Counted from the stretch's first letter, positions 20,980 through 41,521 are shown. The stretch: DNA of 64,000 nucleotides from an uncultured Acidobacteriaceae bacterium (GCA_963797135.1 CAWCOK010000011.1:220444-284443), one strand, 5' to 3'. Program-made: numbers and translations. Notes: generated by a model from the sequence alone, not told the origin.

Positions 20980-22479
20980 TTATGTCTTGGGCACACTCCG
21001 CTGAAAGACCGCGGAGTTGTCATCGGAGTAGACCATCGTCCATCCTGCAAGCGGCAGAACCTGCACCATGGGAGAGGTGCGGGCAAGCAGGCAGAAATTG
21101 ATCTTGTACTTGTCCAGCAGTTTGTTTGGTGGTTCCTGCAGGGTTGCCCAGTTGCCGAACTCTCTGAAGACGCCGGTTGCTTCAAACACGTCGGCTCGAC
21201 CATCGATAAAGACCGGATACTCTGGAGCCGCCCAGATGAGGTAGCCGCCATAGACGTATTCATTCAGCATTGGGCCTGAGATGTGCTTCGATTTGAGAAA
21301 CTCAACCGCCTTTACGGGGCTTTGCTTCGCTACCAGTGAGTTGAGAAAAGGCTTGCCGGGAAACGCAAAATAGATAGCGATGAACGAAGCGATGATCAGG
21401 ACCGCATTGGGAACTGGGTGGTCCCGATAGACGTCGTAGTTGTCCCACTCCTCCTTCAAGAGTCGCGAGAGAATCGGCGCGGCAAGGATGCCAAAGGCAA
21501 AGACCATGCGTTCGTGACTGGCTGCCAGCCATGTTCCCATAGCAAGGATGAGCACTTCCTCCCAAAGAAGCTCCTGGCAACGAACGATGACCATCAGAAG
21601 AGACACTGCAATTACGGCCACAAGAGCGAAGGCCCGCGGATCGCCGAAGCTGAGAGGCTTCCACTCATCCACCGCGCTAAGACCCAACGGCTGGTGCAGG
21701 AGAGTATCAATCGGATAGAAGACCTGGCCTGGCCCAATAGGGTTCAGGAACAGCGCTGCAATCGATAGCAGGAATGCGTAGGCGAGGGTTCGTCGAACCC
21801 GTGGATCCCATGACGGCGATACGAGCAGGCCCGCCTGGAAACGAAAGAACGAGCCGGCAAGAATGACTCCCGCAACCAGAAGACCGAGGAAGAATGATCC
21901 GTGTGTGTTCACCCAGATGGCGAAGAGCACAGGCAGGCCCCAGAACCAGCGTGGATTGCGCGTTCGCCCCAGATGCAACAGGATTAGCTCGACGATCAGG
22001 AAGATGTACCCGAACACCTGCGGCCTGATTCCCAGACCCATGGTTGAAAACAGCCATATGACGAGACCTCCGACAAAGGAGATCTTCGCGTTTCCTGAGT
22101 ACAGCCAACACAGGCAATAGCCGGCGATCAGCAGGACCGAGCCAAGGATGCACAGCAGCGCCATCAGTCCCGGGTAGCCGGCTGCTTTGTAAGCGCCGTA
22201 GATAACAAACTGGGGGAGCCATTCGTGGGGAATGTAGCTGTGATGGCCTGTCGTGAAGGAGAAGAGGTCGGTCCGGGGAATGGTGTGGGTGGTCCAGATG
22301 ATCTCACCCATCTTCAAGTGCCACCACATGTCCGGATCGTCAAAGCGCAGCCGCACCGTGATCACTGCAAGAACAGAGAGGAGAGAAGCCAGCATCGCCG
22401 GAAAGGAGAAGATCCTTCGTATCGGATGAATCGTTGTCACGAAGGGAGCCCGTTCTGCTGTTGCCGGCGTGTTCATCAC
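20980..22479 (-). CDS. Polytopic membrane protein, GT-C-like glycosyltransferase with an STT3/AglB-like C-terminal soluble domain
   Basis: About 11-12 hydrophobic segments, acidic DDPDMWWHL after TM1, C-terminal NEYVYGGYLIW..PVFIDGR..LLDKYKINF. Coupled (ATGA overlap) to the upstream activator gene. Confidence 0.65.
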   Translation of the reverse strand: MMNTPATAERAPFVTTIHPIRRIFSFPAMLASLLSVLAVITVRLRFDDPDMWWHLKMGEIIWTTHTIPRTDLFSFTTGHHSYIPHEWLPQFVIYGAYKAAGYPGLMALLCILGSVLLIAGYCLCWLYSGNAKISFVGGLVIWLFSTMGLGIRPQVFGYIFLIVELILLHLGRTRNPRWFWGLPVLFAIWVNTHGSFFLGLLVAGVILAGSFFRFQAGLLVSPSWDPRVRRTLAYAFLLSIAALFLNPIGPGQVFYPIDTLLHQPLGLSAVDEWKPLSFGDPRAFALVAVIAVSLLMVIVRCQELLWEEVLILAMGTWLAASHERMVFAFGILAAPILSRLLKEEWDNYDVYRDHPVPNAVLIIASFIAIYFAFPGKPFLNSLVAKQSPVKAVEFLKSKHISGPMLNEYVYGGYLIWAAPEYPVFIDGRADVFEATGVFREFGNWATLQEPPNKLLDKYKINFCLLARTSPMVQVLPLAGWTMVYSDDNSAVFQRSVPKT

Positions 22480-23885
22480 GCAGATTCTACTTCCGCGTGA
22501 CCTCCGTCGATAGCAAGTTCAGCATCGGAGATCCCGTCGGGTTCGGCCACACGGATCAAGCGGTGAAGGTAAGCTCGGGAGATATTGAGGCTCCGCGCTG
22601 CCAGCGTCTTGTTTCCGTGGTTCTCGCGCAGCGCCGTTGTCGCCAGCTTGATCTTGTAGCTGCGCAACTGCCGCTCAAACGATCCAGAGGGTTCGTAGTC
22701 CTCAATGTTGAGAACCACGTTCTCCTCCTGAATTCTGACCGGGAGATCTTCCATGGTCAGGGTGTCGCCCGGAGAAACAATGATCGCCTGCTGGATGACA
22801 TTCTCGAGTTCGCGCACATTCCCGGGCCAGGAATAACCCTGCAGCGCCGTCTGAGCCTGAGGATCGATGTCCACCATGGGCTTTCCATACATTTCAGAGT
22901 AATGACGCAGGAAGTACATCGCTATATGCGGGATGTCTTCGGAATGATCGCGAAGCGGCGGGGAATCGATGCCAACTACATTGATTCGGTAATAGAAGTC
23001 CTCGCGGAATGACCCCAGTGAGACCTTCTCCCGAAGATTCTGGTGGGTGGCGAAGATCAGCCGCGCCTTCAGAGGAATCAGCTTACTACTGCCGAGCCGG
23101 CAGAACTCACGCTGCTGGATAACGCGAAGAAGCTTGACCTGTGTGGAGAGGCTGAGTTCTCCGATCTCATCGAGGAAGAGAGTGCCCTCTCCCGCCTGCT
23201 CCAGATAGCCCACGCGGGTACCGACTGTGCCGGTGAATGCTCCCTTCTCGTGGCCGAACAGCTCTGCTTCGATCAGGCTCTCAGGAATAGCTCCACAGCA
23301 AACGGCGACGAAAGGCTTGTTTGCGCGAATGCCCATCCGGTGAATCCCGTTCGCGATAAGCTCTTTTCCGGTTCCGCTCTCGCCTGTGACCAAGACGGTA
23401 GCGCTGATGTTTGCGACGCGATTCATCAGGTCATACACCCGCTGCATCTGAGGGCTGGAACCGATCATCTGATGTCCGGTCCCCGCTGCCTGTCGTTCCT
23501 GAACAGCCTGAATCTCGCGCTTGAGCGCCGCGCTCTCATGCGCTCGTTGAAGAGTTGTCTTGAGATCGCGTATCGAGGGGGGTCTGCGGCAATAGTTGTA
23601 TGCGCCCAGCCTCACAAGCTCGACCGCGTTGGAGCGAAGGCCGTCGCTTGCCATTACAACCAGTGGCATCTCACCAGCCACGATCTGCTTCGTCACGCGC
23701 ACTGCTTCGTGCAACGTGTCATGGTAAGCATCCAAGTCAAGTAGTACGAGATCGAACCGGCTGGTATCTAAAAGCCCGTCCATATCAGCGTCGGTGGGTA
23801 CAAGGCTTGCATCGAACTCATTACCCAAAGCTGAGAGAAGCGACTGCAGAGTACGGTCCTGCGAAGAAAGTCCAATTCGAATCAT
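22476..23885 (-). CDS. Sigma-54-dependent enhancer-binding protein (degenerate receiver, AAA+, Fis HTH)
   Basis: [64 protein letters not shown]. Confidence 0.95.
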
Positions 23886-24180
23886 GTTTCTGGTGCTCCC
23901 GGTTCTTGCTGGGTTAAGCCCCTTGCACTACGACTGTCTGAATCAATTAAGCTCTTATGACGCTGTTCTGTCCTTGCTTCAGATCAACCAAGTTGTTGCG
24001 TCTATCGAAAACTTTGCGCAAAAAGGATTCTTCTTCCCCTTCAGTGCAAGCTGCCGCTTTCTCTAAAACGCCGCAAAATTGGCTAGAGACTGAGTATTTA
24101 TCTGATCCACAGGGCAAAGTCGAGACAAATTAGACGTAACTATGGTAATGAGACGCTCCATGTTACTTTGAAGCGTCGTT

Positions 24181-24196
24181 CGGCAACTGGCTTGCT
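24181..24196 (+). promoter_or_regulatory. Possible sigma-54 -24/-12 promoter CGGCAACTGGCTTGCT
   Basis: GG-N10-GC with TTGCT. It would start transcription about 2 nt before ATG 24209 (near-leaderless). Confidence 0.4.
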
Positions 24197-24208
24197 GAGG
24201 CAATTTAC

Positions 24209-25825
24209 ATGACTTGGCCGCGGAGTTGGGACCCTCTGTTACTCGCCTCTGCGGTGGCGCTCAGTCGCCTCGCATTTCGTACACGCGAGCTATATGACCT
24301 TGATTCGGTGAACTTCGCGCTGGGAATCGCGCGCTTTGACCCTCAGGTCCATCAACCTCACCCACCCGGCTATTTCCTCTACGTTGAGTTAGGCCGTCTG
24401 CTCAATTTCTTCACCCATGATGCGAACCTTGCGCTCGTTATCCTGAGCGCTGCCGCCAGTTGCGGGACAATCCTGCTTATCTATTACCTGGCCCTGGAGT
24501 GGTTTGACATCAGCACAGCGCGCTTTGCCAGCGCAGTCTTTTTCTTTTCTCCGCTTGGCTGGTTTCATGGCACGGTCGCACTCACCTATGGTGTCGAAGC
24601 CTTCTTCTCGGCGCTCATGGGGTATCTGTGTTGGCGGATGGCTCGCGGAACGCCAAGTCTGGCGATCTTCGCAGGCGTGGCCCTGGGGATCTCTGCCGGC
24701 ATTCGACCATCGTCCCTGGTTTTCCTTGGGCCGCTCTATCTCTACTGCCTCTATTCCAGTCGGCAGCTCACACTGCGGCTGCGACTGGCTGGAATCCTCG
24801 TGCTCGCGCTCACCGTCGCTGCCTGGGGCCTGCCAATGCTCTACATGAGTGGCGGTTTCCACGCATACTGGGGAGCCCTTACCTCGTTATGGCGAGTCGT
24901 GCCGTCAAAGGAGACGGTCTTCAACTCCTCGCCTGCCACCTCCCTCGCCCGGGCCTGTTTTGTCGCGTTCGTCGCGATGCTGACCTTCGGCACGGCCTTG
25001 TTGGTTCTTCCTCGGGTCCTCCTGAGCAGTGCTCATGTTGATCCGAAGAAGAGAAACTTCACGATCGTGTGGGCCGCTCCAGCTGTCTGCTTTTTCACGC
25101 TGGTCTTCTTTAAGTTCATCAATAGCGGCTACTTACTCCTGCTCATCGCGCCGGGCTCGGTGTGGCTGGGCTATTGGATTTCGACCTGGTACCAAGCCAG
25201 CAGGTGGCGTGCTTCCGGGAAGCTTGCGCTGCTCGGGACATGCCTTGCGATCAACGTCCTGATCTATCTCCAATCGCCGTTTTACTTTTCTTACCGATCG
25301 GTTCGGAGCTTCGAAAGACGGTTGGATTCCCTGCGCTCTGCGCTTCCGCAGATGTGCGTGCCCGACGACACTCTTGTGGTCGCCTTCGATTCGCATTTTC
25401 TGGGCTATCGCCACGCGGGTTACTATCTCCCGGATTATTTCGTCGTTCAATACCCAGAAGTTAAGCTAAATCAAGGCCCACGTTCATTTGCCATGCATGG
25501 CCGGGATACGTTTCTGCTCGAACAGTTGCCGCTGAGCAAGTACAGAAGATTCGTACTGTTCCCGCTGCCAGGCGAAAAGGGGGACCAGTCCTATCTGGCC
25601 ACGGTCATGGATCTGCTTCCCACAGAGGAACTTAAGACCATCAGGGTGGGTGACCAGCAGTTTGTCGTTGGCCCGATTGCTCTGTTGCCCCGTCTTTTCC
25701 CGCATACGCCACAGTTGACCAGTCAGCGTGTGTATCCGTCGATTCACTCATCATTGCAGTATGTAAACAGCCGTGAACACCCTGCGGCCGGGATCGAGCA
25801 CAAAGCAGCCGATTTGCCCCGATAA
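24209..25825 (+). CDS. DUF2723/TMEM260-like GT-C membrane glycosyltransferase (putative protein O-glycosyltransferase)
   Basis: YDLDSVNF after TM1, HQPHPPGYFLY motif characteristic of DUF2723, GIRP, multiple TM segments, soluble C-terminal domain. Confidence 0.72.
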   Translation: MTWPRSWDPLLLASAVALSRLAFRTRELYDLDSVNFALGIARFDPQVHQPHPPGYFLYVELGRLLNFFTHDANLALVILSAAASCGTILLIYYLALEWFDISTARFASAVFFFSPLGWFHGTVALTYGVEAFFSALMGYLCWRMARGTPSLAIFAGVALGISAGIRPSSLVFLGPLYLYCLYSSRQLTLRLRLAGILVLALTVAAWGLPMLYMSGGFHAYWGALTSLWRVVPSKETVFNSSPATSLARACFVAFVAMLTFGTALLVLPRVLLSSAHVDPKKRNFTIVWAAPAVCFFTLVFFKFINSGYLLLLIAPGSVWLGYWISTWYQASRWRASGKLALLGTCLAINVLIYLQSPFYFSYRSVRSFERRLDSLRSALPQMCVPDDTLVVAFDSHFLGYRHAGYYLPDYFVVQYPEVKLNQGPRSFAMHGRDTFLLEQLPLSKYRRFVLFPLPGEKGDQSYLATVMDLLPTEELKTIRVGDQQFVVGPIALLPRLFPHTPQLTSQRVYPSIHSSLQYVNSREHPAAGIEHKAADLPR

Positions 25826-25897: not shown

Positions 25898-26410
25898 ATG
25901 CATTCCATTAGCTGGTGGCCGACGGTAATTGTTCTGGCAGTAGCCACCATTACCGACCTTCGGAGCCGGAGGATTCCCAACTGGCTGGTGTACCCATTTT
26001 TCATTGCGGGTTTCATCGTCTCCGGCTTTACTAGTGGGATTGGCGGTATCGTTCAAAGCCTGGAGGGAATGTGCGTTGGCGCACTCTTCTTTGGGCTGCT
26101 GTACTTTCTGGGCGGCATGGGAATGGGAGACGTCAAGCTCTGCGCAGCCATCGGGGTATGGATTGGCCCGTCGCAGATGCTTCTGGCGTTGGTTCTGACC
26201 GGCATGGCCGGTGGCCTCATTGCACTTTGTATGGCGGTTGCTGGAGGATTCGTCGGAGAGATGTTCAAGGGCACGGGAGATGTCCTAATCAGTTGGAAGC
26301 GCGGGCTTCGTCCACACCCTGAGTTGGTTCTCAGTAATCCGGTGGCGAGAAAGATGCCCTACGCTCCTGCTATTGCCATAGGCACCGTTGTCTCGTTCTT
26401 CTCACGGTAG
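25898..26410 (+). CDS. cpaA: Prepilin peptidase, A24 family (CpaA/TadV)
   Basis: TDLRSRRIPNW, GGMGMGDVKL, MPYAPAIAIG; no methyltransferase domain; Tad context. Confidence 0.92.
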   Translation: MHSISWWPTVIVLAVATITDLRSRRIPNWLVYPFFIAGFIVSGFTSGIGGIVQSLEGMCVGALFFGLLYFLGGMGMGDVKLCAAIGVWIGPSQMLLALVLTGMAGGLIALCMAVAGGFVGEMFKGTGDVLISWKRGLRPHPELVLSNPVARKMPYAPAIAIGTVVSFFSR

Positions 26411-26498
26411 GTCAGACGATGTTTCGGTTATCAAGACCATGGCGAATCTACATTCACCGATCGGAATGAAGCAAGAAGCACGGAGCGGCGAATTTGTG

Positions 26499-27692
26499 AT
26501 GTCGACCTCGACCAAGGACACGGACGCGATTGGAAGTAAAACGATCTCCATCGCCTTGATCTCTCCCGAGGAGATGCGAAGGAAGCCGCTCGCTGATGCC
26601 TTGGCGGAGTTGCGCGGAAGCGCTACGCGCGAGTTCTCGTCCTACCCGGAGCTGGATGACGTACCCAGGCTTCTTGAGGCGGACTACGACGTCATCATCG
26701 TGGAGTTGGACAGCAATCCGGAGTATGCGCTCGACCTCGTGGAGAGCGTTTGTGCCAATAGTTCCGCCACCGTAATGGTTTACTCAGGGCGTGTCTATCC
26801 CGACATGCTGGTGCGCTGCATGAGAGCAGGAGCCAGAGAGTTCCTCACCTCGCCAGTCACCGCAGGAGCCATTGCGGAGGCGATGATCCGAGCCGCCGTA
26901 CGGCGACCGGCGGCTCGGCCTGTCAAAAAGACGAACGGAAAGTTGTTCGTCTTCGTCGGAGCAAAAGGGGGTTCCGGCGCCACAACGATTGCGAGCAACT
27001 TTGCCGTTGCTCTGGCGCAGGAAAGCAACCAGAACACGCTACTGATCGATCTGAACCTTCCGCTGGGGGATGTTGCGCTCGAACTCGGGGTTCATTCCGA
27101 GTACTCAACGGTAACGGCGCTGCAGGATCATCAGCGTCTGGACTTCAATTTTCTTAATAGCCTGCTGATTAAGCACAGTTCGGGCCTGTCGGTATTGGCG
27201 GCTCCCGATCAATACAGTGAGGTCGAAGCATCTGCCGCTTCTGTTGAGAAGCTGCTATCTGTGGCAAGGCAGAACTTCGACTACGTCGTCGTTGATGCAG
27301 GATCCAGATTTGGAGCGACCGGCAAAGCACTCTTTGAAAATGGTTCGACTGTGTACCTCGTCACGCAAGTGGGTATCTCGGACCTGCGCAACTCCAACCG
27401 ACTGATCTCGGAGCTTCTCAAGGCCAGTGGCGCCGAGGTTGAAGTAGTGCTCAATCGCTTCACGCCGCGGTCTCTGGTCATCGACGAGCAAAGCATCACC
27501 AAGGCGCTCACAATGCCGGCGCAGTGGAAGATTCCGAATGACTACGCGGCAGCCCGCAGTGCGCAGAACACGGCGACCCCGCTGGCGCTCAAAGACTCAC
27601 CGATTTCACGTGTGATCCTGCAGATGGCGAGAGCCGCGCGAGGAGCGCCCTCAAACCCGGAGAAGAAGAAGCGGTTCGGCATCTTCGGTTGA
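26499..27692 (+). CDS. cpaE: Pilus assembly protein CpaE/TadZ (atypical receiver + MinD-like ATPase)
   Basis: CMRAGAREFL receiver remnant, GAKGGSGATT deviant P-loop, LLIDLNLPLGD, VVVDAG, IPNDY. Confidence 0.9.
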   Translation: MSTSTKDTDAIGSKTISIALISPEEMRRKPLADALAELRGSATREFSSYPELDDVPRLLEADYDVIIVELDSNPEYALDLVESVCANSSATVMVYSGRVYPDMLVRCMRAGAREFLTSPVTAGAIAEAMIRAAVRRPAARPVKKTNGKLFVFVGAKGGSGATTIASNFAVALAQESNQNTLLIDLNLPLGDVALELGVHSEYSTVTALQDHQRLDFNFLNSLLIKHSSGLSVLAAPDQYSEVEASAASVEKLLSVARQNFDYVVVDAGSRFGATGKALFENGSTVYLVTQVGISDLRNSNRLISELLKASGAEVEVVLNRFTPRSLVIDEQSITKALTMPAQWKIPNDYAAARSAQNTATPLALKDSPISRVILQMARAARGAPSNPEKKKRFGIFG

Positions 27693-27729
27693 AATTCAAT
27701 GGTTTCGGTAACTGGGGAAATGGGGCTGT

Positions 27730-29010
27730 ATGGATCGTTTGGATCTCGATAAGTTTAAAGCGGAGATACACAAGACGCTGATCTCGAAGCTTGATCTGGA
27801 GAAGCTGTCCCGGGTCAACACGAGCCAGGCTCGGCAGGCTGTCGCGGGCATGGTGAGCGAGATCATCGTCGCGCAGCGTGTTCCGTTGAACTTTTCAGAG
27901 CAGGCCAAGGTTGAAGCCGAGCTGCTGGACGAGGTCTTCGGTCTGGGACCGCTGGAGCCCTTGCTTGCGGATCCGACCATCTCTGACATCCTGGTCAACG
28001 ACAAAAACCACGTCTTTATTGAGCGTCGTGGAATTCTTCATCAGGTCGATACCGCTTTTCGAGATGACCGCCATCTGTTGCAGATCATCGATCGCATCGT
28101 TTCCCGAGTAGGTCGGCGCGTAGATGAGTCTTCTCCGATGGTCGATGCTCGTCTCCCGGACGGATCTCGTGTCAATGCGATTATCCCTCCACTGGCGCTT
28201 GACGGGCCCGCGCTGTCGATTCGCCGTTTCGGAACCGGACCGCTCGCGGCAAATCAGCTGGTCGAACTGAAGAGCATCTCGCCGGAGATGATGGAGGTTC
28301 TTACCGCAGCGGTTCGCGCACGCATCAGCATCCTGATCTCCGGAGGAACTGGCGCCGGAAAGACGACCTTCCTCAATATCCTCTCGCAGTACATCCCGAA
28401 GAACGAACGCATCGTGACGATCGAGGACGCCGCCGAACTCAGACTGGCTCTCGACAACATCGTGCGTATGGAGACCCGGCCGCCTAACGTTGAGGGCACC
28501 GGTGCTGTCCGCCAGCGTCAACTTCTCATCAACAGTCTGCGTATGCGTCCCGATCGCATCATCATCGGTGAGGTTCGTGGCGAGGAAGCCTTCGACATGC
28601 TTCAGGCCATGAACACGGGCCACGAAGGATCAATGACTACGATCCACGCGAACACACCCAGGGACGCGCTCACCAGACTTGAATCCATGGTGGCGATGAG
28701 CAACCTGAATCTGCCGGAAAAGAGTGTTAGGCAGCAGATCGTCTCGGCGATTTCGATTGTCGTTCAGGTTTCGCGCATGAGCGACGGCAGCCGCAAGGTC
28801 GTCAGCATCTCCGAGATTACGGGAATGGAAGAGAACATCGTCAGTATGCAAGATATCTTCACCTTCTCCCGAAAGGGTGTCGGGCCGGACGGCAAGGTTA
28901 TCGGAACATTCGCGCCAAGCCGTATCCGTCCAAAGTTCCTTGAGCGGTTAAAGGTGTCAGGAATATTCCTGTCGCCTAATCTCTTCGAGCAGACGATGGA
29001 AGTGAACTGA
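27730..29010 (+). CDS. cpaF: Tad pilus assembly ATPase CpaF/TadA
   Basis: [67 protein letters not shown]. Confidence 0.96.
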
Positions 29011-29028
29011 AGCATCGAGGAAACGCCG

Positions 29029-30001: not shown

Positions 30002-30011
30002 GAGACTGGAT

Positions 30012-31727: not shown

Positions 31728-31751
31728 TTCGGGCATGCAAGGACGGGTCCT

Positions 31752-32276: not shown

Positions 32277-32510
32277 TGTCAAGCCCCAAATCTCACAAGT
32301 TACTCAAAGTAAACCGCATAGACTTGCCGATCAATTTGTATCGGTTTGTTAGAATGTAAATTGGAATAAGAAAGCCTCCGGTCCGACGGGGGCTTTCGTC
32401 TTGTTGGATCGTTCATTTACGCGTAGTTGTCCGGTGCGTTGGAATGAAATCGAGGTACCAGGCTAAACCCTTATAAATGAACACTTGCGCAAAATAAGTG
32501 CAGGGGGTTA
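32277..32510 (-). repeat. ~230-bp AT-rich intergenic element, copy A
   Basis: Colinear similarity to 49361-49593 in opposite orientation (TGTCAAG.CCC, CACAA, TTGCCGAT.AATT, TA.AATG, GAGGTAC.A..CTAA). Confidence 0.6.
32370..32397. terminator. Hairpin between the convergent PilZ and TonB-like genes
   Basis: GAAAGCCTCCG-GTCCGA-CGGGGGCTTTC stem-loop, followed by GTCTTGTT. Confidence 0.6.
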
Positions 32511-32517
32511 CCACACT

Positions 32518-34064: not shown

Positions 34065-34080
34065 AGCAATTTGTGGGCCA
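34065..34080 (-). promoter_or_regulatory. Sigma-54 -24/-12 promoter TGGCCCACAAATTGCT for the TonB-like gene
   Basis: Near-consensus TGGCAC-N5-TTGCW on the minus strand, about 100 nt upstream of ATG 33965. Confidence 0.72.
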
Positions 34081-34240: not shown

Positions 34241-34256
34241 TGGCACACGAATTGCG
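34241..34256 (+). promoter_or_regulatory. Sigma-54 -24/-12 promoter TGGCACACGAATTGCG for cpaB-cpaC
   Basis: Consensus TGGCAC-N5-TTGC about 50 nt upstream of cpaB. Confidence 0.82.
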
Positions 34257-34307: not shown

Positions 34308-35180
34308 ATGAACAAGAGATTGTTGGTCATTCTTCTATGTGCGTTTTTTGTTGCCAGCGCGTGTAGCTTGCTCGTCTACCGTCTGGTTGGAAAACGTCTG
34401 GGCGCCGCGCGCCCGAGCGCCAATAAAGTGGTGGTAGCGGCTACGGATATCAAGCTGGGAAGCGTTCTCCGCGAGATAGACCTGAGCACTTCGGAGATAT
34501 CAGGCAGTCTGCCAAAGGGAGCCATCACTGATCCGAAGGTCGCGATTGGCCGCGGTGTGATCGCGAGCCTTTCCCAGGGTGAACCGATCCTCGAGAGCCG
34601 ACTAGCCGCTGCAGGTTCAGGGGGAGGGCTTGCCGCGACGATTAGTCCGGGGATGCGTGCCTGCGCTATTAAGGTCGATGACGTTGTCGGCGTCGCCGGA
34701 TTCGTAACAGCGGGTATGCGTGTGGATGTCCTGATCTCCGGAAATCCTCCCGGTTCGCCCAACCCGAGCGAGGGACCCAAAGTTAAGACTCTCCTTCAAA
34801 ACATCGAGGTATTGTCGGCCGGCACGGACATCCAGAAGGATGAAGAGGGCAAAGCTAAGTCTGTTCAGGTCGTCAATCTGCTTGTAACTCCGGAGCAGGC
34901 GGAAAACCTGAGTCTTGCCAGCAATCAAACCCACATACAACTTGTCCTGAGGAACCCATTGGATACGGAGATCGGTAAGCCTCCGGGATCGATGATGTCG
35001 AACCTGTTTTCGGACAAGGGTAGCGTGCCCCCTGCTCCTGTGAAGGTATCCTCTCCCGCCCGGCCCCGGGTCGCTACTGGTCCATCATCAAAGGTTTACC
35101 TGGTTCAGGTCTACAACGGATCTAAGAAAACTGAAGAAAAATTCGTTGATGCTGAGGGGAAAGCTGAGGGGAAAAAATAG
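34308..35180 (+). CDS. cpaB: Flp pilus assembly protein CpaB/RcpC
   Basis: N-terminal TM, SAF domain (VVVAATDIKLG), PGMRA..VAGFV..G.RVDV, LLQNIEVLS, VNLLVTPEQAE.L.LA, LVLRN. Confidence 0.93.
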   Translation: MNKRLLVILLCAFFVASACSLLVYRLVGKRLGAARPSANKVVVAATDIKLGSVLREIDLSTSEISGSLPKGAITDPKVAIGRGVIASLSQGEPILESRLAAAGSGGGLAATISPGMRACAIKVDDVVGVAGFVTAGMRVDVLISGNPPGSPNPSEGPKVKTLLQNIEVLSAGTDIQKDEEGKAKSVQVVNLLVTPEQAENLSLASNQTHIQLVLRNPLDTEIGKPPGSMMSNLFSDKGSVPPAPVKVSSPARPRVATGPSSKVYLVQVYNGSKKTEEKFVDAEGKAEGKK

Positions 35181-36721
35181 TGAGAGCAAGTATTTCCATC
35201 GCGTGTTTGTGTGTATGTTCGTTAGGGCTCTGCGCGGGATTGACTCTCAAGGCACAGACCCCTGGCACTGGGGTGGCGACACAGGATACAACCAACGATC
35301 TTCTGGTTGCGGTCGGAAAGTCTGTGCTTGTGGATAGTGCACGGCCTATCGAGCGAATAGCGGTGGGGGCTGGCGATCTTGCCGAGGCCACGGCAGTGAG
35401 CCCTTCAGAGATCATGGTTAACGGCAAGGCCCCAGGTGAGACGACTCTCATCGTCTGGCAGGCAGGTGGTGGACGGCAATTTTTCAACTTGAAGGTGCGC
35501 GCCAACGACGCCGCAACAGTTGATAAGCTTGATGGCCTTCGTCGCGAGTTAAGAACCGAGTTTCCAGGACAACCTATGCGGCTCACAGCCGAGGGCGGGA
35601 CGATCTTTTTGCGCGGCACCGTGAAGGATCTCGAGAGTTCTGATCGTGCCGTTCAGATCGCCTCCTCAGCCGGTAAGGTGGTGAACCTGCTTTACGTCAA
35701 CGTTCCTCAACGGGAGACGCAGATTCTACTAAAGGTACGCTTCGCGTCTCTTGACCGTACTACAGGCAAAGCACTCGGCATAAACATCTTCAGCACCGGT
35801 GCAGGGAATACCATCGGCGCGGTATCGACACAACAGTTTCCTGGTCCATCTCTCACTCTTCCTTCAGGCGGAAATGGAGCAGCCGCTACTGTGTCGCAGC
35901 TGCTGAATATCTTTCTCTTTCGGCCGGACCTGAATCTCGGAGCAACGATCCAGGCGTTAGAGCAGAAGGGCGTTTTGCAGGTATTGGCTGAGCCCAATCT
36001 CCTTACAACAAATGGGAAACAAGGCAGTTTTCTAGCTGGCGGCCAGTTTCCGTATCCAGTCGTACAGGGAACCACAGGAGGCGGAACGGGTGCGGTAACT
36101 ATTCAGTTCAAGGAGTTTGGTGTTCGCCTCGACTTTATTCCGACGATCACTCCGCGCGGAACTATCCGTCTCCAGGTAGCTCCAGAAGTAAGCGCATTGG
36201 ACTTCGCGAACGGAATTACGATCTCCGGCTTTACAGTGCCAGGACTCACAACCAGAAAAGTAAATACCGAAGTCGAACTGGGCCAAGGACAAAGTTTTGC
36301 CATTGGGGGATTGCTCGACAATCGCGAGACCCGGAATCTCTCGAAGATCCCGTATATCGGGGACATTCCTGTACTTGGAAAACTTTTCCAATCGATCAAG
36401 ACTGACAAACAGAACACGGAACTCATCGTGATTGTGACGCCGGAGATCGTAAATCCGCTACCGGTCGGCGAGCCTCTGCCGCAGTTGAAGTTTCCGGATG
36501 AGTTTTTACCTTCGGCCTCGGGCATTCCTATGACGACGCCTCAGGTCAACACGGGATCGACGCCTCCTCCCGCTGAACCGGCGTCTGCTCTTCCGGTTGA
36601 AAAGCTGGTTCAGAGTATGAAGGCCGAACAGCCGCTCAATATCGACAACTCGACCTCGGGCTCGTACACATCGCCTATGACGGGTGCAGGAGCAGGAACA
36701 ACATCGGGTGCACCTCGATAG
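35180..36721 (+). CDS. cpaC: Tad secretin CpaC/RcpA with BON-like domain
   Basis: VNGKAPGETTLIVW, QILLKVRFA, LAEPNL, FLAGGQFP, FKEFGVRL, VAPEVS, IPYIGDIPVLGKLF, TELIVIVTP. Confidence 0.93.
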   Translation: MRASISIACLCVCSLGLCAGLTLKAQTPGTGVATQDTTNDLLVAVGKSVLVDSARPIERIAVGAGDLAEATAVSPSEIMVNGKAPGETTLIVWQAGGGRQFFNLKVRANDAATVDKLDGLRRELRTEFPGQPMRLTAEGGTIFLRGTVKDLESSDRAVQIASSAGKVVNLLYVNVPQRETQILLKVRFASLDRTTGKALGINIFSTGAGNTIGAVSTQQFPGPSLTLPSGGNGAAATVSQLLNIFLFRPDLNLGATIQALEQKGVLQVLAEPNLLTTNGKQGSFLAGGQFPYPVVQGTTGGGTGAVTIQFKEFGVRLDFIPTITPRGTIRLQVAPEVSALDFANGITISGFTVPGLTTRKVNTEVELGQGQSFAIGGLLDNRETRNLSKIPYIGDIPVLGKLFQSIKTDKQNTELIVIVTPEIVNPLPVGEPLPQLKFPDEFLPSASGIPMTTPQVNTGSTPPPAEPASALPVEKLVQSMKAEQPLNIDNSTSGSYTSPMTGAGAGTTSGAPR

Positions 36722-36734
36722 CTAGAGCGGAATC

Positions 36735-37136
36735 ATGAATCTTGTGAGACGGCTGTTGACTAGGCCGAACAAACAGCAGAGCGCACGTCTCTGCGTGGTA
36801 AACCGCACGAGAGAGATTCAATTGGCCCATTCCATCGAAGTGGCCGATGAAGCCTCCACCCGCAGGAAAGGCCTACTCGGAAGAGTGAACCTCGCTGCAG
36901 GGGAGGGTCTTTGGATCGTGCCCTGCGAAGCGGTTCATACCTTCGGAATGAAGTTCCCTATCGACCTCGTCTTTCTGGATCGCAACAAGATCGTTAAGAA
37001 GGTCAAACACAACGTCGTGCCTGGAAGGCTATCCATGTGTCTATCAGCTCATTCTGTGCTTGAGCTTGCATCTGGGGCAATCCAGTCGAGCGGGACTCTG
37101 CCGGGCGACAAGCTTGAGTTCGGGTCGGCTGCCTAA
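36735..37136 (+). CDS. DUF192-family protein (second copy)
   Basis: ADEASTRRKGLLGR, EGLWIVPCEAVHTFGMKFPIDLVFLD, SVLELASG. Confidence 0.88.
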   Translation: MNLVRRLLTRPNKQQSARLCVVNRTREIQLAHSIEVADEASTRRKGLLGRVNLAAGEGLWIVPCEAVHTFGMKFPIDLVFLDRNKIVKKVKHNVVPGRLSMCLSAHSVLELASGAIQSSGTLPGDKLEFGSAA

Positions 37137-37215
37137 AATGCAGAGCTTGCCCAGAAAATCTGGGCATAGACACCGCTTATGCGACGGAAGTTGTATACGC
37201 TCTGTAGCGCGGCCC

Positions 37216-37240
37216 TCCAGTTTGTATACAGCCGTTCACA
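37216..37240. promoter_or_regulatory. Candidate upstream activator site TCCAGTTTGTATACAGCCGTTCACA
   Basis: Same motif and same 80-bp spacing to the -24 GG as at 34154-34178. Confidence 0.6.
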
Positions 37241-37302
37241 GCTGGTATCACCGCATTTGGATAAGTTATTCATTCAGAAGGATCAATCAGAGCTAAGGAA
37301 AA

Positions 37303-37318
37303 TGGTCTACCGCTTGCT
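37303..37318 (+). promoter_or_regulatory. Sigma-54 -24/-12 promoter TGGTCTACCGCTTGCT for the flp pilins
   Basis: TGG-N10-GC with TTGCT, about 63 nt upstream of the first flp. Confidence 0.68.
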
Positions 37319-37381
37319 ATTAGAGAGAGTAGCCCAGTCAATGGCTGGAAACAAAAAAACGAAAGTTCCTGGAGGATACAA

Positions 37382-37579
37382 ATGAAAGACAAGCTTTGGT
37401 TGATGTCCATCAAGATGAAGGAAGTTCTGAATAGCGAAGAGGGTCAGGATCTTATCGAGTACGCTCTCATCGTGGCGTTGATCGCATTCGCTGCCACCGT
37501 CGGTATGGGCTCGCTCGCCTCAGGCATCAATAAGGCATTCGGCAACATAGGCAGCAAGGTCGCCAGCTATACAAGCTAG
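37382..37579 (+). CDS. flp: Flp family type IVb/c pilin 1
   Basis: EEG|QDLIEYALIVALIA Flp motif, 65 aa, GGAGG SD. Confidence 0.95.
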   Translation: MKDKLWLMSIKMKEVLNSEEGQDLIEYALIVALIAFAATVGMGSLASGINKAFGNIGSKVASYTS

Positions 37580-37764: not shown

Positions 37765-37962
37765 ATGAAAGAGAAAATTTGGATGATGTCGATCAAGATC
37801 AAGGACGTTCTGAATCGTGAAGAGGGTCAGGACCTTATCGAGTATGCTCTCATCGTAGCGTTGATTGCGTTTGCCGCCACTGTCGGTATGGGCTCTCTCG
37901 CCTCGGGCATCAATCAAGCATTCGCCAACATAGGCAGCAAGGTCGCCAGCTATACCAGTTAG
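37765..37962 (+). CDS. flp: Flp family type IVb/c pilin 2
   Basis: EEG|QDLIEYALIVALIA; mature part differs from pilin 1 at two residues. Confidence 0.95.
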   Translation: MKEKIWMMSIKIKDVLNREEGQDLIEYALIVALIAFAATVGMGSLASGINQAFANIGSKVASYTS

Positions 37963-37994
37963 TTGTGGCGATAAGCCGGACAACCTGAAAGCGT

Positions 37995-38042
37995 GGGGGA
38001 GAGATTGCGGAAGGTATAGAGACGAGCGCATTTCTCCCTTTT
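37995..38042 (+). terminator. 3'-UTR hairpin / probable terminator after flp2
   Basis: GGGAGAGATTGCG...CGCATTTCTCCC followed by TTTT. Confidence 0.55.
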
Positions 38043-38130: not shown

Positions 38131-39195
38131 ATGCTTCTTTCGGTGGTGATTCCCGTTCTCAACGAAGCTGCGGCGTTGCCGCTGCTGCTACCGAGGCTTC
38201 GCGATGTTCTGCGTGACCAACAGTGGGAGCTTATCGTCGTCGACGATGGAAGCACGGATGCGACGCCAGCGATTCTTGAGTGCGCCTCCCGCAGCGACGA
38301 GCGTGTCAAAGTCCTTCGCTTCACTAGAAACTTCGGACATCAGGCTGCCGTAACTGCGGGGTTGGATTTTGCCAATGGGGATGCGGTGATTATCATGGAT
38401 GCGGACCTTCAGGATCCTCCTGAGCTATTGCCGCGAATGCTTGCTCTTTTCGAGCAGGGATATGACGTTGTCTCTCCACAGAGAATCTCCCGCGAGTCTG
38501 AGACCGCATTCAAGCGGTGGACCGCTGCCGCTTTCTACAAGGTGTTGTCGTATCTCTCCCGCCACCAATGCACGCCAGATGTTGGAGACTTTCGCCTGCT
38601 CAGCCGCAGGGCTGTGGAGGCCATTCGCTCTCTTCGCGAGCAACACAGGTATATGCGTGGAATGATTGCTTGGCTTGGTATGAAGGAAGCCATCTTGCCG
38701 TTCGAGCGTCGTGCGCGGGCCGCAGGCAAGACCAATTACTCTCTGCTGAAAATGATGCGTTTCGCCTGGACTGGAATATCTTCCTTCTCGGCTCTGCCTC
38801 TGCGTATCAGTATCGCCGCTGGATGCTTTCTTAGCTTTGCTGGATTTCTTTACTTCCTTCGGGTGATGTATCTTGCGCTTTTCACAAATACGCTTGTTCC
38901 CGGCTGGGCTTCCGTCGTTGCTCTCCAATGTGTTTTTTCAGGCATGATACTGCTGGCTCTTGGCGCAGTGGGTGATTATGTCGCCCGAACTTACGAGGAA
39001 ACAAAGAGCCGGCCACTCTACGTTTTGTCCGCGACGTGCAATGTCCCACAGTCGAAGAACATCCTCTCTCGCGTCGTCATTCTTCCCGAGCCGCTTCCAC
39101 TCGCTCCTGTGTCCATGCGTGACGAACTGCCGCTTGAGGTTGTCGTCGCCGCAGAAGAGCCGTCTTTCAGTCCCCTTGCTGGAATTGGTGTGTAG
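38131..39195 (+). CDS. GT2 polyprenol-phosphate glycosyltransferase (GtrB/ArnC-like)
   Basis: SVVIPVLNE, VDDGSTD, RNFGHQAAVTAG, MDADLQDPPE, GDFRLLS, two C-terminal TMs, YEETKSRPLY. Confidence 0.92.
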   Translation: MLLSVVIPVLNEAAALPLLLPRLRDVLRDQQWELIVVDDGSTDATPAILECASRSDERVKVLRFTRNFGHQAAVTAGLDFANGDAVIIMDADLQDPPELLPRMLALFEQGYDVVSPQRISRESETAFKRWTAAAFYKVLSYLSRHQCTPDVGDFRLLSRRAVEAIRSLREQHRYMRGMIAWLGMKEAILPFERRARAAGKTNYSLLKMMRFAWTGISSFSALPLRISIAAGCFLSFAGFLYFLRVMYLALFTNTLVPGWASVVALQCVFSGMILLALGAVGDYVARTYEETKSRPLYVLSATCNVPQSKNILSRVVILPEPLPLAPVSMRDELPLEVVVAAEEPSFSPLAGIGV

Positions 39196-39214
39196 ATCCA
39201 CGAGGCGCGGCTAG

Positions 39215-40796
39215 ATGAGCACAGAGCTTATTTACGACAGTGCTGTCAAAGATACTTTGACAACATTGACAGTGCGGGGAACGGATAACCTTCCAGTTTG
39301 GAAAAAATACACGCTCTTTGGGCTGCTGGCCAGTTTGTATCTGCTTCCGTTCATGCCGATTTATCTCTTAGGCACCGACGAGGGTACGCTTGATTACGGT
39401 GCTGTAAGGATTGCTCAAGGACAGGTATTCACACGAGACTTCTTTGAGGTCATTGGACCCGGAACGTTTTATTCTCTGGCGGCATTTTTCAAGCTCTTCG
39501 GAGTGAGCTTTCTGGTAAGCCGCGTGTACCTGTTTTTGATCTCGTTGGGAACCGCTCTGCTGATGTACTTTTTGTCTCGTCGGTTGTGTAGAACTCATCA
39601 GGCATTAGCAAGCATCTTTTTAGCCGCGACCTCCTTTGGTCTTTTATGGCCAGAGGTAGGTCATCATGTCGACAGCAATTTTTATGCGTTGATAACCGCT
39701 GCTTGCATCCTTCTCTGGTACGAGAGAAGAAGTAAATTCTTTTTATTTGCTGCTGGAGTGTCTGCGGGGATTACATCGGTTGTGCTGCAACCGAAAGGGT
39801 TCCTTCTGTTTGTTGCGCTTCTGGTATGGTTGTTGATTTTGCGCAAGCGTCGAGAGACTTCGTTATCCTCACTTGGCCATGTGATGATGGGCTACTTTGG
39901 AGTTCTCTCTCGTCGCCCTAGCGTTCTGGAGCAAGGGTGCTTTTCGGAGTCTTGTCTACGTAAACTTCATCTGGCCGCTGTTCCATTATCAAACGGTAAA
40001 CACCGTAACATACGCGGGCGACGTGGTCCTGAGTTTTCGCAACCACGTGGTGGAGGGGATCAAATGGACCATTCCCCTGGCGGCCGTACTAGTTACGCCC
40101 TTTCTCTTTGTCGCAGCGTTTCCGGTTTTATTGCCCGTCATTGGAGCGCGCCTTCGCTGGAACCTAAAACGAGCAGACGTGCTTCTTTTTTGGTTATGCG
40201 GTGCGGCGGTGCTTGCTTCAGAGTGGCACAGAAAAGATATAGCTCACCTCGTATTCGGATCGCCCTTTCTCATGATCCTCTGCGTTCACCTTTTGACTGA
40301 GTATCGTGGGAGAATCGCAACTTTCGCCATTAATGTGTTGTCAATCAGTTGCGTGACGTTAGCAGTGTTCAACTTACTGTGTGTGTTTCTAAGCGCGCAC
40401 TCGGTTACGACGTCCGTAGGGAAGATCAAGGTTTTCACGCAAGACGGCGCACTCGCTTTTGAAAGGGAACACGTCTCTTCTGGAGAAGAGATTTTTGCTT
40501 ATCCGTTCTGTCCTCGATACTACTTCTTGGGGGCGGCGAAAAATCCCACACCATATAGCCTGATGATTTACGGCTACAACACCCGCTCACAATTTCTGGA
40601 AGTGATCCGGATTCTCGAGGAGCGCAAGGTGAAGTACGTCTTCTGGGATACAAATTTGGAACAAGTTATGGCAGATGTTTTTCCAGCCGCAAATCACCCG
40701 CCCGCCGGTGGATTCATTATTGAGCCGTATCTTGAGTCGCATTACAGGGTCGTACAGGTATCGAACGGCACTCGCATCCTGGAGCGCAAGGAATAA
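39215..40796 (+). CDS. GT-C (PMT_2/ArnT-like) membrane glycosyltransferase; frameshift near 39900
   Basis: TDEG...AVRIAQGQVFTRDFFEVIGPG after TM1, many TMs, soluble C-terminal domain continuing in 39897..40796. Confidence 0.75.
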
Positions 40797-40798
40797 CT

Positions 40799-41521
40799 AT
40801 GCGCGATAATGCAAATCCCGAATTTGATCAGTATGCTCGCTCATACGACGGCCTCCTGGAAGATCCGATCAGGGATCGATTTGCTCGAGATCCACTCCAT
40901 TTCCATCGTAGAAAGTGGATTGTGCTCGAGCGTCTGCTCAATCGAGCAGGGGTCAATCCAAAGACACAGAGATGGCTGGATGTGGGGTGTGGCCGAGGAG
41001 AGCTATTGGACTTGGCGAGCGGTAGCTTCGCGCGGTCGATTGGCTGCGACCCTTCACATGGCATGCTTGTGTCTGGCGCTCGGGCAGATGTCTTTCAGCA
41101 GTCATCTTCGGTGGAACTGCCGTTTGAGGACAATTCTGCAGATCTGATTACTGCGGTATGCGTCTATCACCATGTTCATGGAGAGGCAAGGTCCCTCTTG
41201 ACCAGGGAGATTCGAAGAGTCCTTGCGCCCGGTGGTCTGTGCTGCATCATTGAGCACAACCCTTGGAATCCGGTGACTCGCTCGATCGTGAAGAGATGCC
41301 CGGTGGATGTTGATGCGGAGCTTCTTACCGCGCAGTCCGGATCCGCGTTGCTGAAATCGGCGGGTTTCGAGCGAGTTTGCGCGGATTACTTTTTGTTTCT
41401 GCCGGAGCGGCTATTCGATCGCATTGGAAGCGTGGAAGGAATGTTTTCGAAGGTGCCCCTGGGCGGACAGTACGCCCTTCTGGCTCGATCGACTAAGCCA
41501 TCTGTCACTCCTAGTCGCTAA
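40799..41521 (+). CDS. Class I SAM-dependent methyltransferase
   Basis: WLDVGCGRG, LPFEDNSADLI, VYHHV, RVLAPGG, EHNPWNP, PLGGQY. Confidence 0.9.
   Translation: MRDNANPEFDQYARSYDGLLEDPIRDRFARDPLHFHRRKWIVLERLLNRAGVNPKTQRWLDVGCGRGELLDLASGSFARSIGCDPSHGMLVSGARADVFQQSSSVELPFEDNSADLITAVCVYHHVHGEARSLLTREIRRVLAPGGLCCIIEHNPWNPVTRSIVKRCPVDVDAELLTAQSGSALLKSAGFERVCADYFLFLPERLFDRIGSVEGMFSKVPLGGQYALLARSTKPSVTPSR

Follow-up and report, generated by a model that had tools for sequence, protein, structure and literature searches.

Why a Tad/Flp pilus locus should sit among genes for glycosyltransferases is the question raised by the genome of an uncultured soil bacterium of the Acidobacteriaceae. Tad/Flp pili are among the most widespread bacterial adhesion organelles and are usually treated as bare filaments of a minimal 40–50-residue pilin; to our knowledge, no dedicated glycosylation system has been described for them. 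In the window (the whole stretch of 64,000 nucleotides analyzed, GCA_963797135.1 CAWCOK010000011.1:220444-284443), positions 20980–41521 hold a complete Tad/Flp locus together with genes for three GT-C-type membrane proteins, a GtrB-like GT2 and a SAM methyltransferase (MTase). We read this, with moderate confidence, as a Tad/Flp pilus locus that includes dedicated machinery for glycosylation in the periplasm. Judging from sequences and structure models, a sugar coat is probable on these pili or on a part made with them.

Gene content of the locus and predicted enzyme classes

All core parts of a Tad/Flp (type IVc) system were matched by Pfam: pilins, A24 peptidase, CpaF/TadA, TadB/TadC, CpaB/RcpC, secretin and CpaE/TadZ. 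On the minus strand, the start of the gene for GTC1, a membrane enzyme with an STT3/PglB/AglB-like GT-C fold that was recognized by predicted fold and has no sequence family (20980–22479), overlaps by 4 bp the stop of a gene for a sigma-54 enhancer-binding activator (22476–23885; Sigma54_activat, E = 2.4e-65). On the plus strand, the gene for GTC2, a DUF2723/TMEM260-like GT-C (24209–25825; PF11028, 31.9 bits against a cut-off of 24.2, and 36.3 bits in the genome search), ends 72 bp before cpaA (prepilin peptidase, 25898–26410; Peptidase_A24). It is followed on the same strand by cpaE (ParA/MinD-like, 26388–27692; AAA_31/CbiA), cpaF (ATPase, 27730–29010; T2SSE), tadB (29029–30024; T2SSF), tadC (30012–30923; T2SSF) and genes for a DUF192 protein and a PilZ-domain protein (31077–32171; Pfam), both of which recur in related loci. 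A TonB_C-type membrane protein with a Pro/Thr-rich linker, identified from orthologues and from TonB_C in a relative, is encoded on the minus strand (32530–33965); its orthologues are single ORFs of 479–493 aa, whereas the window copy is frameshifted and split over frames -3 and -2.

A perfect sigma-54 promoter core (-24/-12, TGGCAC-N5-TTGC; 34241–34256, plus strand) precedes cpaB, and a divergent partner with one mismatch lies at 34065–34080 on the minus strand. The count of this core pattern over the whole window was not above chance; its position is what counts. Downstream on the plus strand are cpaB (34308–35180; RcpC), the secretin gene cpaC (35180–36721; Secretin), a second DUF192 gene listed after cpaC (within 34308–37136; DUF192) and two flp prepilin genes (37382–37579 and, as flp2, 37765–37962; Flp_Fap), which are the only flp genes of the genome. 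The GT2 gene (38131–39195) starts 168 bp after flp2 and is followed, on the same strand, after 19 bp by the gene for GTC3, a PMT_2-type GT-C with a broken frame (39215–40796), and after a further 2 bp by the class I MTase gene (40799–41521; Methyltransf_11, E = 2e-18). Every gene named in the initial annotation was thus found in its place and with its reported spacing, by Pfam or, for GTC1, by the GT-C fold. Genome-wide (5.4 Mb), there was one copy of GTC1, one of the DUF2723 gene, two of full-length GtrB-like genes and about 16–19 of PMT_2 genes. Because the single-copy glycosyltransferase genes of the genome all fall in this locus, the clustering of GTC1 and the DUF2723 gene is far beyond chance.

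By sequence, the GT2 is of the GtrB/polyprenyl-phosphate hexose synthase class. It matched GtrB sll0501 (5ekp) over its full length (residues 3–301, E = 2.1e-71), as well as PgfS (E = 2.2e-77) and ArnC (E = 7e-40), with scores under the NCBIfam equivalog cut-offs for PgfS and ArnC. A DAD motif lies at residues 90–92 and two C-terminal hydrophobic TM helices at about 225–290. GTC3 matched PMT_2 (PF13231) with 38.0 bits against a cut-off of 26.1 (frame 39215–39910) and has the acidic loop-1 motif TDEG. The initial annotation had taken it for a single gene, but in this assembly it occupies two overlapping frames (39215–40300 and 39897–40796). The break is a (TC)4 run at 39904–39911 that is 2 bp (one TC unit) short: contigs from four independent metagenome runs have (TC)5, with the TC inserted behind 39903, and give one GTC3 ORF. 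Because GTC3 is intact in these four metagenomes and two further genes of the window are also split, the frameshift is likely an assembly error. The MTase sequence lacks a signal peptide and points to a cytoplasmic protein; the methyl cap proposed earlier is for this reason a guess. No flippase was found, including any of the GtrA type.

GTC1 matched no Pfam or NCBIfam family at E≤0.01, and a profile of 40 homologues found no PDB sequence. Its AF2 model had a pLDDT of 92.6, and the top 38 Foldseek matches were all GT-C proteins. In structure alignment (VIA Z), the scores were 23.2 for STT3B, 18.9 for PglB and 18.2 for AglB, and 15–19 across PglB, AglB, Pmt, DPY19 and ArnT; the whole-protein match to STT3/AglB/PglB (Z 18–23) covered about 400–430 residues. 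Furthermore, residues 383–495 form an OST-type C-terminal alpha/beta domain (AglB C-domain 3vu0, Z 8.6, rmsd 2.4, 104 aa; PglB C-domain 3aag, Z 6.9). On this model we confidently assign GTC1 to the GT-C superfamily, with a predicted STT3/PglB/AglB-like fold. The loop-1 motif DPDxWWH lies directly behind TM1; position 48 is D or E in 40/40 homologues, and D50, W53, H54 and R324 are invariant. An acidic loop-1 motif is kept in all three GT-C proteins, so that with the full-length sll0501 match of the GT2, the enzyme classes first read from the DNA held. Membership of GTC1 in Pfam STT3 (PF02516, GT66) was rejected, as there was no Pfam/NCBIfam match and no PDB sequence match. The WWDxG motif is likewise absent from its C-terminal domain, which has GGYLIW...FIDGR; the sole WW is in loop 1 (MWWHL). 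The GTC1 family comprises at least 2110 proteins, all annotated as hypothetical and without a Pfam family. The present reading offers a testable function for them, and the family may yield a compact STT3-like enzyme recognizing a membrane-embedded acceptor.

Linkage of the glycosyltransferase genes to Tad loci

The initial annotation had named the absence of a conserved linkage to tad genes as refuting its proposal. Linkage was in fact class-wide for GTC1: among 20 class-wide relatives selected by score alone, 19 lay in or beside Tad clusters, across families and with rearranged gene order, and it recurred for GT2, PMT_2 and even MTase genes. In a well-supported GTC1 clade, 39 of 44 members were Tad-linked. 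Among 41 related genomes, which are not independent samples, GTC1 was present in 14 of the 23 Tad-positive and in none of the 18 Tad-negative genomes (0/18). Nine of the 23 Tad-positive relatives were without GTC1, and the enzymes are therefore not required for Tad pili as such. GTC1 and the adjacent activator were kept in 7/7 same-genus orthologous Tad loci, and the activator was adjacent in many other loci. No other glycosyltransferase partner of Tad loci is as well conserved in the class as GTC1. In one locus (L041), far from any Tad machinery, an unlinked GTC1 paralogue neighbors an orphan flp gene. Loci with GTC1 also have the TonB_C protein, TadG-like proteins, PilZ proteins and the activator, which are missing from plain Tad loci without GTC1; the TonB_C-type protein was present in 19 loci and belongs to the module that travels with GTC1.

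The other genes were less constant. The DUF2723 gene was in the same place in 4/7 same-genus loci and was not seen outside the genus. Downstream of the pilin genes in five same-genus orthologous loci, GTC3 was found in one, a divergent GT2 in two and the MTase in none; the GT2/GT-C/MTase trio, presented earlier as a unit, was absent as such from all five. Intact GTC3 orthologues adjoin flp in G020, G027, G031, G218 and G157, with two copies right after flp in G020, and an MTase homologue lies beside a GT2 in G112 (partial match in G210). More widely, islands with varying gene content lie between the sigma-54 activator and the pilin genes; GtrB-like GT2, PMT_2, GT87 and PAP2 genes occur in them repeatedly. 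Glycosyltransferase genes occupy this interval in G210, G216, G104, G186 and G204, with islands abutting flp in the first three, and they directly follow the pilin genes in the window, G020, G010 and G002.

An STT3-like GT-C family lies inside Tad clusters class-wide. No paper describing glycosylation built into Tad loci was found in the literature searched, in accord with the earlier remark that no such pathway was known in Acidobacteria. By analogy, the variable gene content beside the pilin genes resembles pilin/flagellin glycosylation islands. Because of this resemblance, diversifying selection on the pilus surface may be suggested, for example on adhesion properties or against pilus-specific phages, although this is speculative.

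Predicted pathway, candidate acceptors and alternative readings

In the pathway that we propose, the GtrB-like GT2 would charge polyprenyl phosphate with a hexose taken from a nucleotide sugar at the cytoplasmic face of the membrane, and a putative flippase would turn the lipid-linked sugar over. At the periplasmic face, GTC1 and lineage-variable GT-Cs (here the DUF2723 and PMT_2 enzymes) would pass the sugar to the acceptor. Of these, GTC1 is the part that has remained with Tad loci under sigma-54 control throughout the class, and the other GT-Cs are additions that differ between lineages. A polyprenyl-phosphate-linked sugar as the GTC1 donor is suggested by the GtrB-like GT2 genes that recur beside GTC1 genes. 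The likeliest acceptor would be the Flp pilin while it is still held in the membrane, on the short C-terminal half exposed to the periplasm; polymerization would then yield a sugar-coated filament.

The mature window pilins are 44 aa each (processed between G and QDLIEY). The count of seven Ser/Thr per mature pilin reported earlier was right; as a hint of glycosylation it failed, since pilins of Tad loci without these enzymes have 7–11. Neither Ser/Thr content nor any motif set pilins from loci with GTC1 apart from those of loci without it. N-x-S/T sequons were sporadic: some related pilins have them, the window pilins do not. A complex model of GTC1 with the mature pilin scored 0.69 against 0.00 for the best of three controls, which were perhaps not membrane helices, so that generic hydrophobic docking is possible. 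In a rough calibration in which own alignments were used, 58 of 80 solved complexes reached this score mark, as did 2 of 110 mismatched pairs. The runs had no less than 43% of contacts in common, and the partner pLDDT was at least 61. The docked pilin helix had the correct N-in/C-out topology and placed Glu5 next to K132 of GTC1, a residue that is Lys in 32/40 homologues. From gene position and this one docking model, we infer that the pilin is the acceptor.

Alternatively, the same enzymes could assemble or modify a non-protein glycoconjugate produced alongside the pilus, for example a lipoglycan, modified LPS or an adhesive polysaccharide. Their genes would then share regulation by the sigma-54 activator, and the pilus proteins would stay untouched. 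Known GtrB and GT-C pairs mostly act on O-antigen, lipid A or teichoic acids rather than on proteins, and Caulobacter couples its holdfast to Tad pili. The arrays in G186, G204, G210 and G216, with up to four GTC1 paralogues together with GT87, PAP2 and several GT2 genes, are reminiscent of machinery that builds a glycan step by step (cf. mycobacterial lipomannan/arabinan synthesis), and the pilin sequences carry no acceptor signature. We nevertheless consider this unlikely: the closest folds of GTC1 are protein-modifying GT-Cs, including the OST-type C-terminal domain, the genes lie tight against pilin genes, with one GTC1 beside the orphan flp, and the GTC1–pilin complex model passed its controls. 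Genes for Wzx/Wzy, ABC or Wza export were not noticed in the islands, although they were not searched for systematically. A merely coincidental neighborhood of unrelated envelope glycosyltransferases flanking a Tad locus might be imagined from the abundance of PMT_2-type genes in acidobacterial genomes (about 16–19 here) and from the exact trio after the pilins not being conserved in the genus. It is very improbable and already contradicted by the synteny survey (19/20 relatives linked across families in rearranged order; 14/23 versus 0/18), and the single-copy GTC1 and DUF2723 genes are both in this locus.

Acceptors among other Tad-associated envelope proteins, namely the TonB_C linker, TadG-like large pseudopilins and the tails of CpaC and CpaB, would fit the joint occurrence of TonB_C, TadG-like and PilZ proteins and the activator with GTC1 and their lack in plain Tad loci. 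Pro/Ser/Thr-rich linkers are typical targets of O-mannosylation in actinobacteria. Of the Pro/Ser/Thr-rich tails noted initially, that of CpaC was evident (0.40 in the last 60 residues versus 0.23 overall), that of CpaB was only mild (0.27 versus 0.21), and the TonB-like linker, in the frameshifted gene, likewise reached 40%. The basis of this reading is co-occurrence; the islands of most lineages adjoin the pilin genes and not the genes of these proteins, none of which is near the orphan GTC1–flp pair. We hold it to be improbable. If pilus glycosylation is true for a large clade of abundant soil bacteria, the surface chemistry of Tad pili, adhesion, aggregation and phage sensitivity would depend on glycans, and the variable islands beside the pilin genes would be a diversity generator of pilus glycans.

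Comparison with known systems

The window locus has its core machinery in common with the canonical Tad loci (Aggregatibacter tad, Caulobacter cpa and Pseudomonas rcp/tad) and adds the sigma-54 activator, PilZ and TonB_C proteins and the glycosyltransferase genes; we know of no glycosyltransferases in the canonical loci. The Caulobacter Tad pilus, the one solved at high resolution, showed no glycan density (PMC10710030), and for Aggregatibacter a paper cites only indirect hints of Flp modification (PMC12307814).

GtrA/GtrB/Gtr, ArnC/ArnT, CsbB/YfhO, PgfS/PgfM (Streptococcus mutans) and Ppm1/Pmt (actinobacteria) follow the same logic, in which a GT2 makes a polyprenyl-phosphate sugar that, once flipped, serves as donor for a GT-C acting outside the cytoplasm. 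Among these, PgfS/PgfM and Ppm1/Pmt modify proteins. The present locus differs from them in its lack of a detected GtrA-type flippase, its pilus setting and its unannotated GT-C family. GTC1 resembles STT3/AglB/PglB in fold, in its small C-terminal alpha/beta domain, in the acidic loop-1 motif and in an invariant Arg within the position range of the phosphate-binding Arg. It differs in having no Pfam STT3 match, no WWDxG and a much smaller soluble domain (about 115 aa). In addition, the window pilins have no sequon, and the product of the neighboring GT2 class is a single sugar linked through a monophosphate rather than an oligosaccharide linked through a pyrophosphate. Archaeal type IV pilins and archaellins are glycosylated by AglB, and Tad pili are considered descendants of archaeal type IV pili. 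GTC1 might be a bacterial branch of the STT3/AglB lineage that never left the Tad pilus; much of the Acidobacteriota, a phylum of soil bacteria, would then retain an archaeal-style, obligatory step of pilin glycosylation in which the pilin is recognized through its TM helix (Glu5 to Lys132) and not through a sequon. We regard this as a long shot.

TfpW of Pseudomonas aeruginosa/paraeruginosa group IV (pilA-tfpW-tfpX) is required for pilin glycosylation, which is abolished by its loss, and needs its loop-1 acidic motif (bioRxiv 10.1101/2020.04.19.049825). Compared by description, both systems place the gene for a GT-C-fold membrane enzyme beside the major pilin gene, and TfpW uses a polyprenyl-phosphate-linked monosaccharide. 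The substrates of TfpW are type IVa pilins with a globular domain, to which it attaches D-arabinofuranose oligomers that a DprE-type pathway makes, whereas the present system, as predicted from genes and models, has a Tad/type IVc pilin of 44 aa, a GtrB-like donor synthase and several unrelated GT-C families. The TfpW-type arrangement, a GT-C gene directly beside the major pilin gene, was found across the relatives, in the window, G020, G027, G031, G218, G157, G210, G216 and G104.

Gene content, reading frames and promoters of the locus

Scans with Pfam and NCBIfam confirmed the presence of all genes that the initial annotation had named. GTC1, a membrane-protein gene without a family match (20980–22479, minus strand), overlapped by 4 bp with the gene for a sigma-54 enhancer-binding activator (22476–23885, minus strand). 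On the plus strand lay GTC2, which encodes a DUF2723/TMEM260-like protein (24209–25825), cpaA, cpaE, cpaF, tadB and tadC (25898–30923), genes for a DUF192 protein and a PilZ protein between tadC and cpaB, then cpaB, cpaC and a second DUF192 protein gene (34308–37136), and two Flp prepilin genes, flp1 and flp2 (37382–37579 and 37765–37962). These were followed by a tight plus-strand block (38131–41521) comprising the GtrB-like gene GT2 (38131–39195), the PMT_2-type GT-C gene GTC3 (39215–40796) and a SAM-methyltransferase gene (40799–41521), which lie 19 and 2 bp apart in turn. A TonB_C-type gene (32530–33965, minus strand) was divergent to cpaB. Genome searches found flp at one locus and one copy each of GTC1 and the DUF2723 gene, together with two full-length GtrB-like genes and about 16–19 PMT_2 genes. 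Two open reading frames were rejected as genes: that at 32485–33210 (plus strand) was an antisense artefact over the TonB-like gene, and that of 68 aa at 37179–37385 (plus strand), without a family, was the flp1 leader region. The genes directly 3′ of the methyltransferase gene (41638–45878), for a formylglycine-generating enzyme and BatD/VWA/TPR proteins, lie outside this system.

The GT-C gene that had been placed at 39215 was present, and in the window it was split into two overlapping frames. The window carries (TC)4 at 39904–39911, versus (TC)5 in contigs of four independent public soil/rhizosphere metagenome runs from four studies, which were 95–100% alike to the window (most pieces at least 99%). 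The predicted loss of one TC unit was borne out by all four runs, each with an extra TC behind 39903. The extra unit restores the single frame of 39215–40796; a 2-bp difference breaks this gene in this assembly only. The TonB-like gene too fell into two frames, −3 and −2, where four same-genus orthologues had a single one; an amidohydrolase gene (17202–18825, minus strand) was likewise split into two overlapping frames. The assembly (5.4 Mb in 18 contigs) was only 68% complete. Because of the two further split genes, this low completeness and the intact metagenome copies, the frame breaks look like assembly indel errors rather than biology. Strain-specific mutation may be an alternative source of the breaks; phase variation at the TC tract is not favoured, given that the tract counts no more than 4–5 units and that the window contains two further split genes.

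A perfect TGGCAC-N5-TTGC element was found before cpaB and a copy with one mismatch before the TonB-like gene, and these were the only convincing sigma-54 sites. With one mismatch allowed, the pattern count in the window did not exceed that in shuffles; with three mismatches it fell below it. Weaker GG/GC sites preceded GTC2 (24181), cpaA (25853) and flp1 (37303); the last of these (37303–37318, plus strand) was a weak −24/−12-like site, TGG...TTGC, about 80 bp 5′ of flp1. The pattern search of the window found no sigma-54 site before GT2. Between flp2 and GT2, a GC-rich hairpin followed by UUUU (37996–38042, plus strand), which a simple terminator scan had missed, may dampen transcription beyond the pilin genes. 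This hairpin suggests weaker expression of the GT2 block than of the pilins, arising either through read-through or from a separate promoter.

Predicted enzyme classes of GTC1 and GT2

GTC1 gave no sequence match in Pfam, NCBIfam or the PDB, and a 40-homologue profile did not change this. At least 2110 relatives were found in a collection of 5.8 billion proteins, all named hypothetical and all lacking Pfam domains. Edaphobacter aggregans carries a GTC1 orthologue that is 62% identical. The AlphaFold2 model built with the 40 homologues was confident (pLDDT 92.6, pTM 0.91), and its best 38 Foldseek matches were GT-C enzymes without exception (38/38). An independent structure aligner placed human STT3B at Z 23.2 over 428 aligned residues, followed by PglB (18.9), AglB (18.2), Pmt4 (18.1), DPY19 (17.2) and ArnT (15.3). 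The small C-terminal soluble domain (383–495), aligned separately, matched the C-terminal domain of AglB (Z 8.6) and PglB (Z 6.9). Among the 40 homologues, position 48 in loop 1 was D or E in every sequence (D48 in GTC1), D50, W53 and H54 of the same loop were invariant, as were H193 and R324, and R152 was nearly so. The WWDxG motif was absent and Pfam STT3 was not matched; by sequence criteria, GTC1 is not a member of GT66. The modelled GTC1 resembles protein-modifying GT-C enzymes in shape and predicted mode of action.

GT2 matched Synechocystis GtrB (sll0501, 5ekp) over its full length (E 2e-71), with further matches to ArnC (7e-40) and DPMS (9e-18). The best NCBIfam model was PgfS, below the equivalog cut-off. 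GT2 has a DAD motif and two C-terminal membrane helices and, as judged from these similarities, is a polyprenyl-phosphate sugar synthase.

Linkage of glycosyltransferase genes to Tad loci

The initial annotation had said that its reading, a dedicated and possibly methyl-capped pilin glycosylation pathway, would fall if these genes had no conserved linkage to tad loci. A synteny survey bore out the Tad linkage of GTC1 and found that of GT2 and PMT_2 to recur; for DUF2723 it did not reach beyond the genus, and for the methyltransferase it was weak. The reading was supported in part, for the enzyme classes and the linkage of GTC1, GT2 and PMT_2.

Seven same-genus genomes had an orthologous Tad locus (CpaF 80–88% identical); GTC1 and the activator were present in all seven, and GTC2 in four. 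In the region 3′ of the pilins, covered for five of the seven, GTC3 was found in one (G020, which carried two intact tandem copies directly 3′ of its flp genes), a divergent GT2 in two (G010 and G002) and the methyltransferase in none. GTC1 homologues occurred in 101 of 201 sampled genomes, often as tandem arrays. We examined 20 kb around the 20 top GTC1 matches across the class Terriglobia, picked by score only, of which 18 came from other families at 30–37% identity. Tad genes lay within the fetched 20 kb for 16 matches; in three of the remaining four, a complete flp-cpaA...tadC cluster lay just past it, and the last was on a contig that ends, with a TadG/PilZ/activator/TonB module present. 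Gene order varied among lineages and the glycosyltransferase genes were retained. GTC1 was found in 14 of 41 relatives, all 14 with Tad CpaF, and in none of 18 Tad-negative genomes, and nine Tad-positive relatives were without it, counts that are descriptive as relatives are not independent samples. In the tree, 44 class-level GTC1 sequences formed a well-supported clade, 39 of them Tad-linked after flank extension. The sister group was Tad-linked in 4/4 cases and more distant homologues in 1/18, and among distant relatives from outside the class, at about 200 bits, 15–16 of 20 had no Tad genes nearby. Since distant relatives are mostly unlinked, the Tad link belongs to one clade and not to the whole superfamily. 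One of the unlinked GTC1 paralogues (L041 on G012:C1, about 2.09 Mb; 9409–11460) lay in divergent orientation beside an orphan gene for a bona fide Flp prepilin, some 1 Mb away from where that genome has its Tad machinery.

The related loci shared a common layout of three blocks: TonB_C, TadG-like, PilZ and sigma-54 activator genes; a glycosyltransferase (GT) island with one to four GTC1 copies, GtrB-like GT2, PMT_2, GT87, PAP2, unknown membrane proteins of 520–580 aa and sometimes a methyltransferase; and one to three flp genes, cpaA-B-C-E-F, tadB-C and DUF192. In G210, about 25 kb of island genes lay between the activator and three flp genes. Two classes of Tad locus were distinguished among relatives (L032–L040 versus L003–L031 and L042–L044): plain loci, the type of the Tad-positive genomes without GTC1, had no activator, TonB-like gene or GT genes, and sigma-54-activator loci carried GTC1 and a GT island. 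G008, G012 and G005 had both classes or two plain loci. In other families, a conserved pair encoding a DUF362 protein and a prenyltransferase/squalene-hopene-cyclase-repeat protein lay between the activator and GTC1 (L015, L017, L018, L020, L024 and L026); it was absent from the window. Three families of 520–620-aa membrane proteins, none with a Pfam family, recurred in GT islands beside pilin genes: c18 (L016, L018, L021, L022 and L028), c21 (L020, L024 and L027) and c26 (L010, L023, L069 and L072). These may be further unannotated GT-C families; comparison with the GTC1 profile by hhalign detected no similarity.

The pilin as candidate acceptor and comparison with known systems

In the proposed pathway, GT2 would make a polyprenyl-phosphate sugar; after flipping, this sugar would be the donor for GT-C enzymes at the periplasmic face. 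This logic comes from the enzyme classes, by analogy with GtrB/GtrX, ArnC/ArnT, Ppm1/Pmt and PgfS/PgfM, in which a polyprenyl-phosphate sugar is made, flipped and used by a GT-C enzyme outside the cytoplasm. No GtrA-family flippase (PF04138) was found in this genome, at 68% completeness and with split genes.

The complex model of GTC1 with the mature pilin scored 0.69 (three runs), versus 0.00 for the best of three controls; scores this high were seen for 58 of 80 solved complexes and for 2 of 110 mismatched pairs, a calibration that is approximate here, as we supplied our own alignments. The runs shared at least 43% of contacts, and partner pLDDT was at least 61. In the model, the pilin helix (1–25) lay along TM1 (26–44), 132–146 and 348–361 of GTC1 in the correct N-in/C-out topology, with pilin residues 20–25 where TM1 ends, immediately ahead of the catalytic loop. 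The universally conserved pilin Glu5 was placed beside K132 of GTC1, a position occupied by Lys in 32 of the 40 homologues. The model supports binding of the pilin by GTC1, judged against control partners that are not necessarily membrane helices.

Gene position and the docking model together point to the pilin as acceptor; position counts in its favour in that the GT islands directly adjoin flp, much as tfpW adjoins pilA in Pseudomonas. Three observations speak against a pilin acceptor. A series of GT-C paralogues would fit the stepwise building of a lipoglycan as well. The pilins have no motif that sets those of loci with GTC1 apart; the wider comparison with loci lacking GTC1, in which Ser/Thr content and sequons did not differ either, counts neither for nor against. 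The seven Ser/Thr per pilin counted earlier were correct and proved uninformative, as pilins of Tad loci without these enzymes have 7–11. Furthermore, the structure of the Caulobacter Tad filament has no glycan density (PMC10710030). Weighing these points, we lean, with modest assurance, towards a Tad-dedicated periplasmic glycosylation system with the pilin as its likeliest acceptor.

In the literature searched, we came across no account of Tad loci with inbuilt glycosyltransferases or of enzymes that glycosylate Tad pilins; for Aggregatibacter Flp1, one report cites only indirect hints of modification (PMC12307814). New here would be pilin-linked GT-C glycosylation in a Tad system, the predicted core of which is an unannotated STT3-like family. 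In pathway logic, the closest known systems are the three-component systems of GtrB type. In fold, GTC1 is closest to STT3/AglB/PglB, of which AglB is a glycosylating enzyme for type IV pilins in archaea. In function, the closest is TfpW of Pseudomonas, a GT-C enzyme encoded beside pilA that uses a lipid-linked monosaccharide to glycosylate the pilin (bioRxiv 10.1101/2020.04.19.049825).
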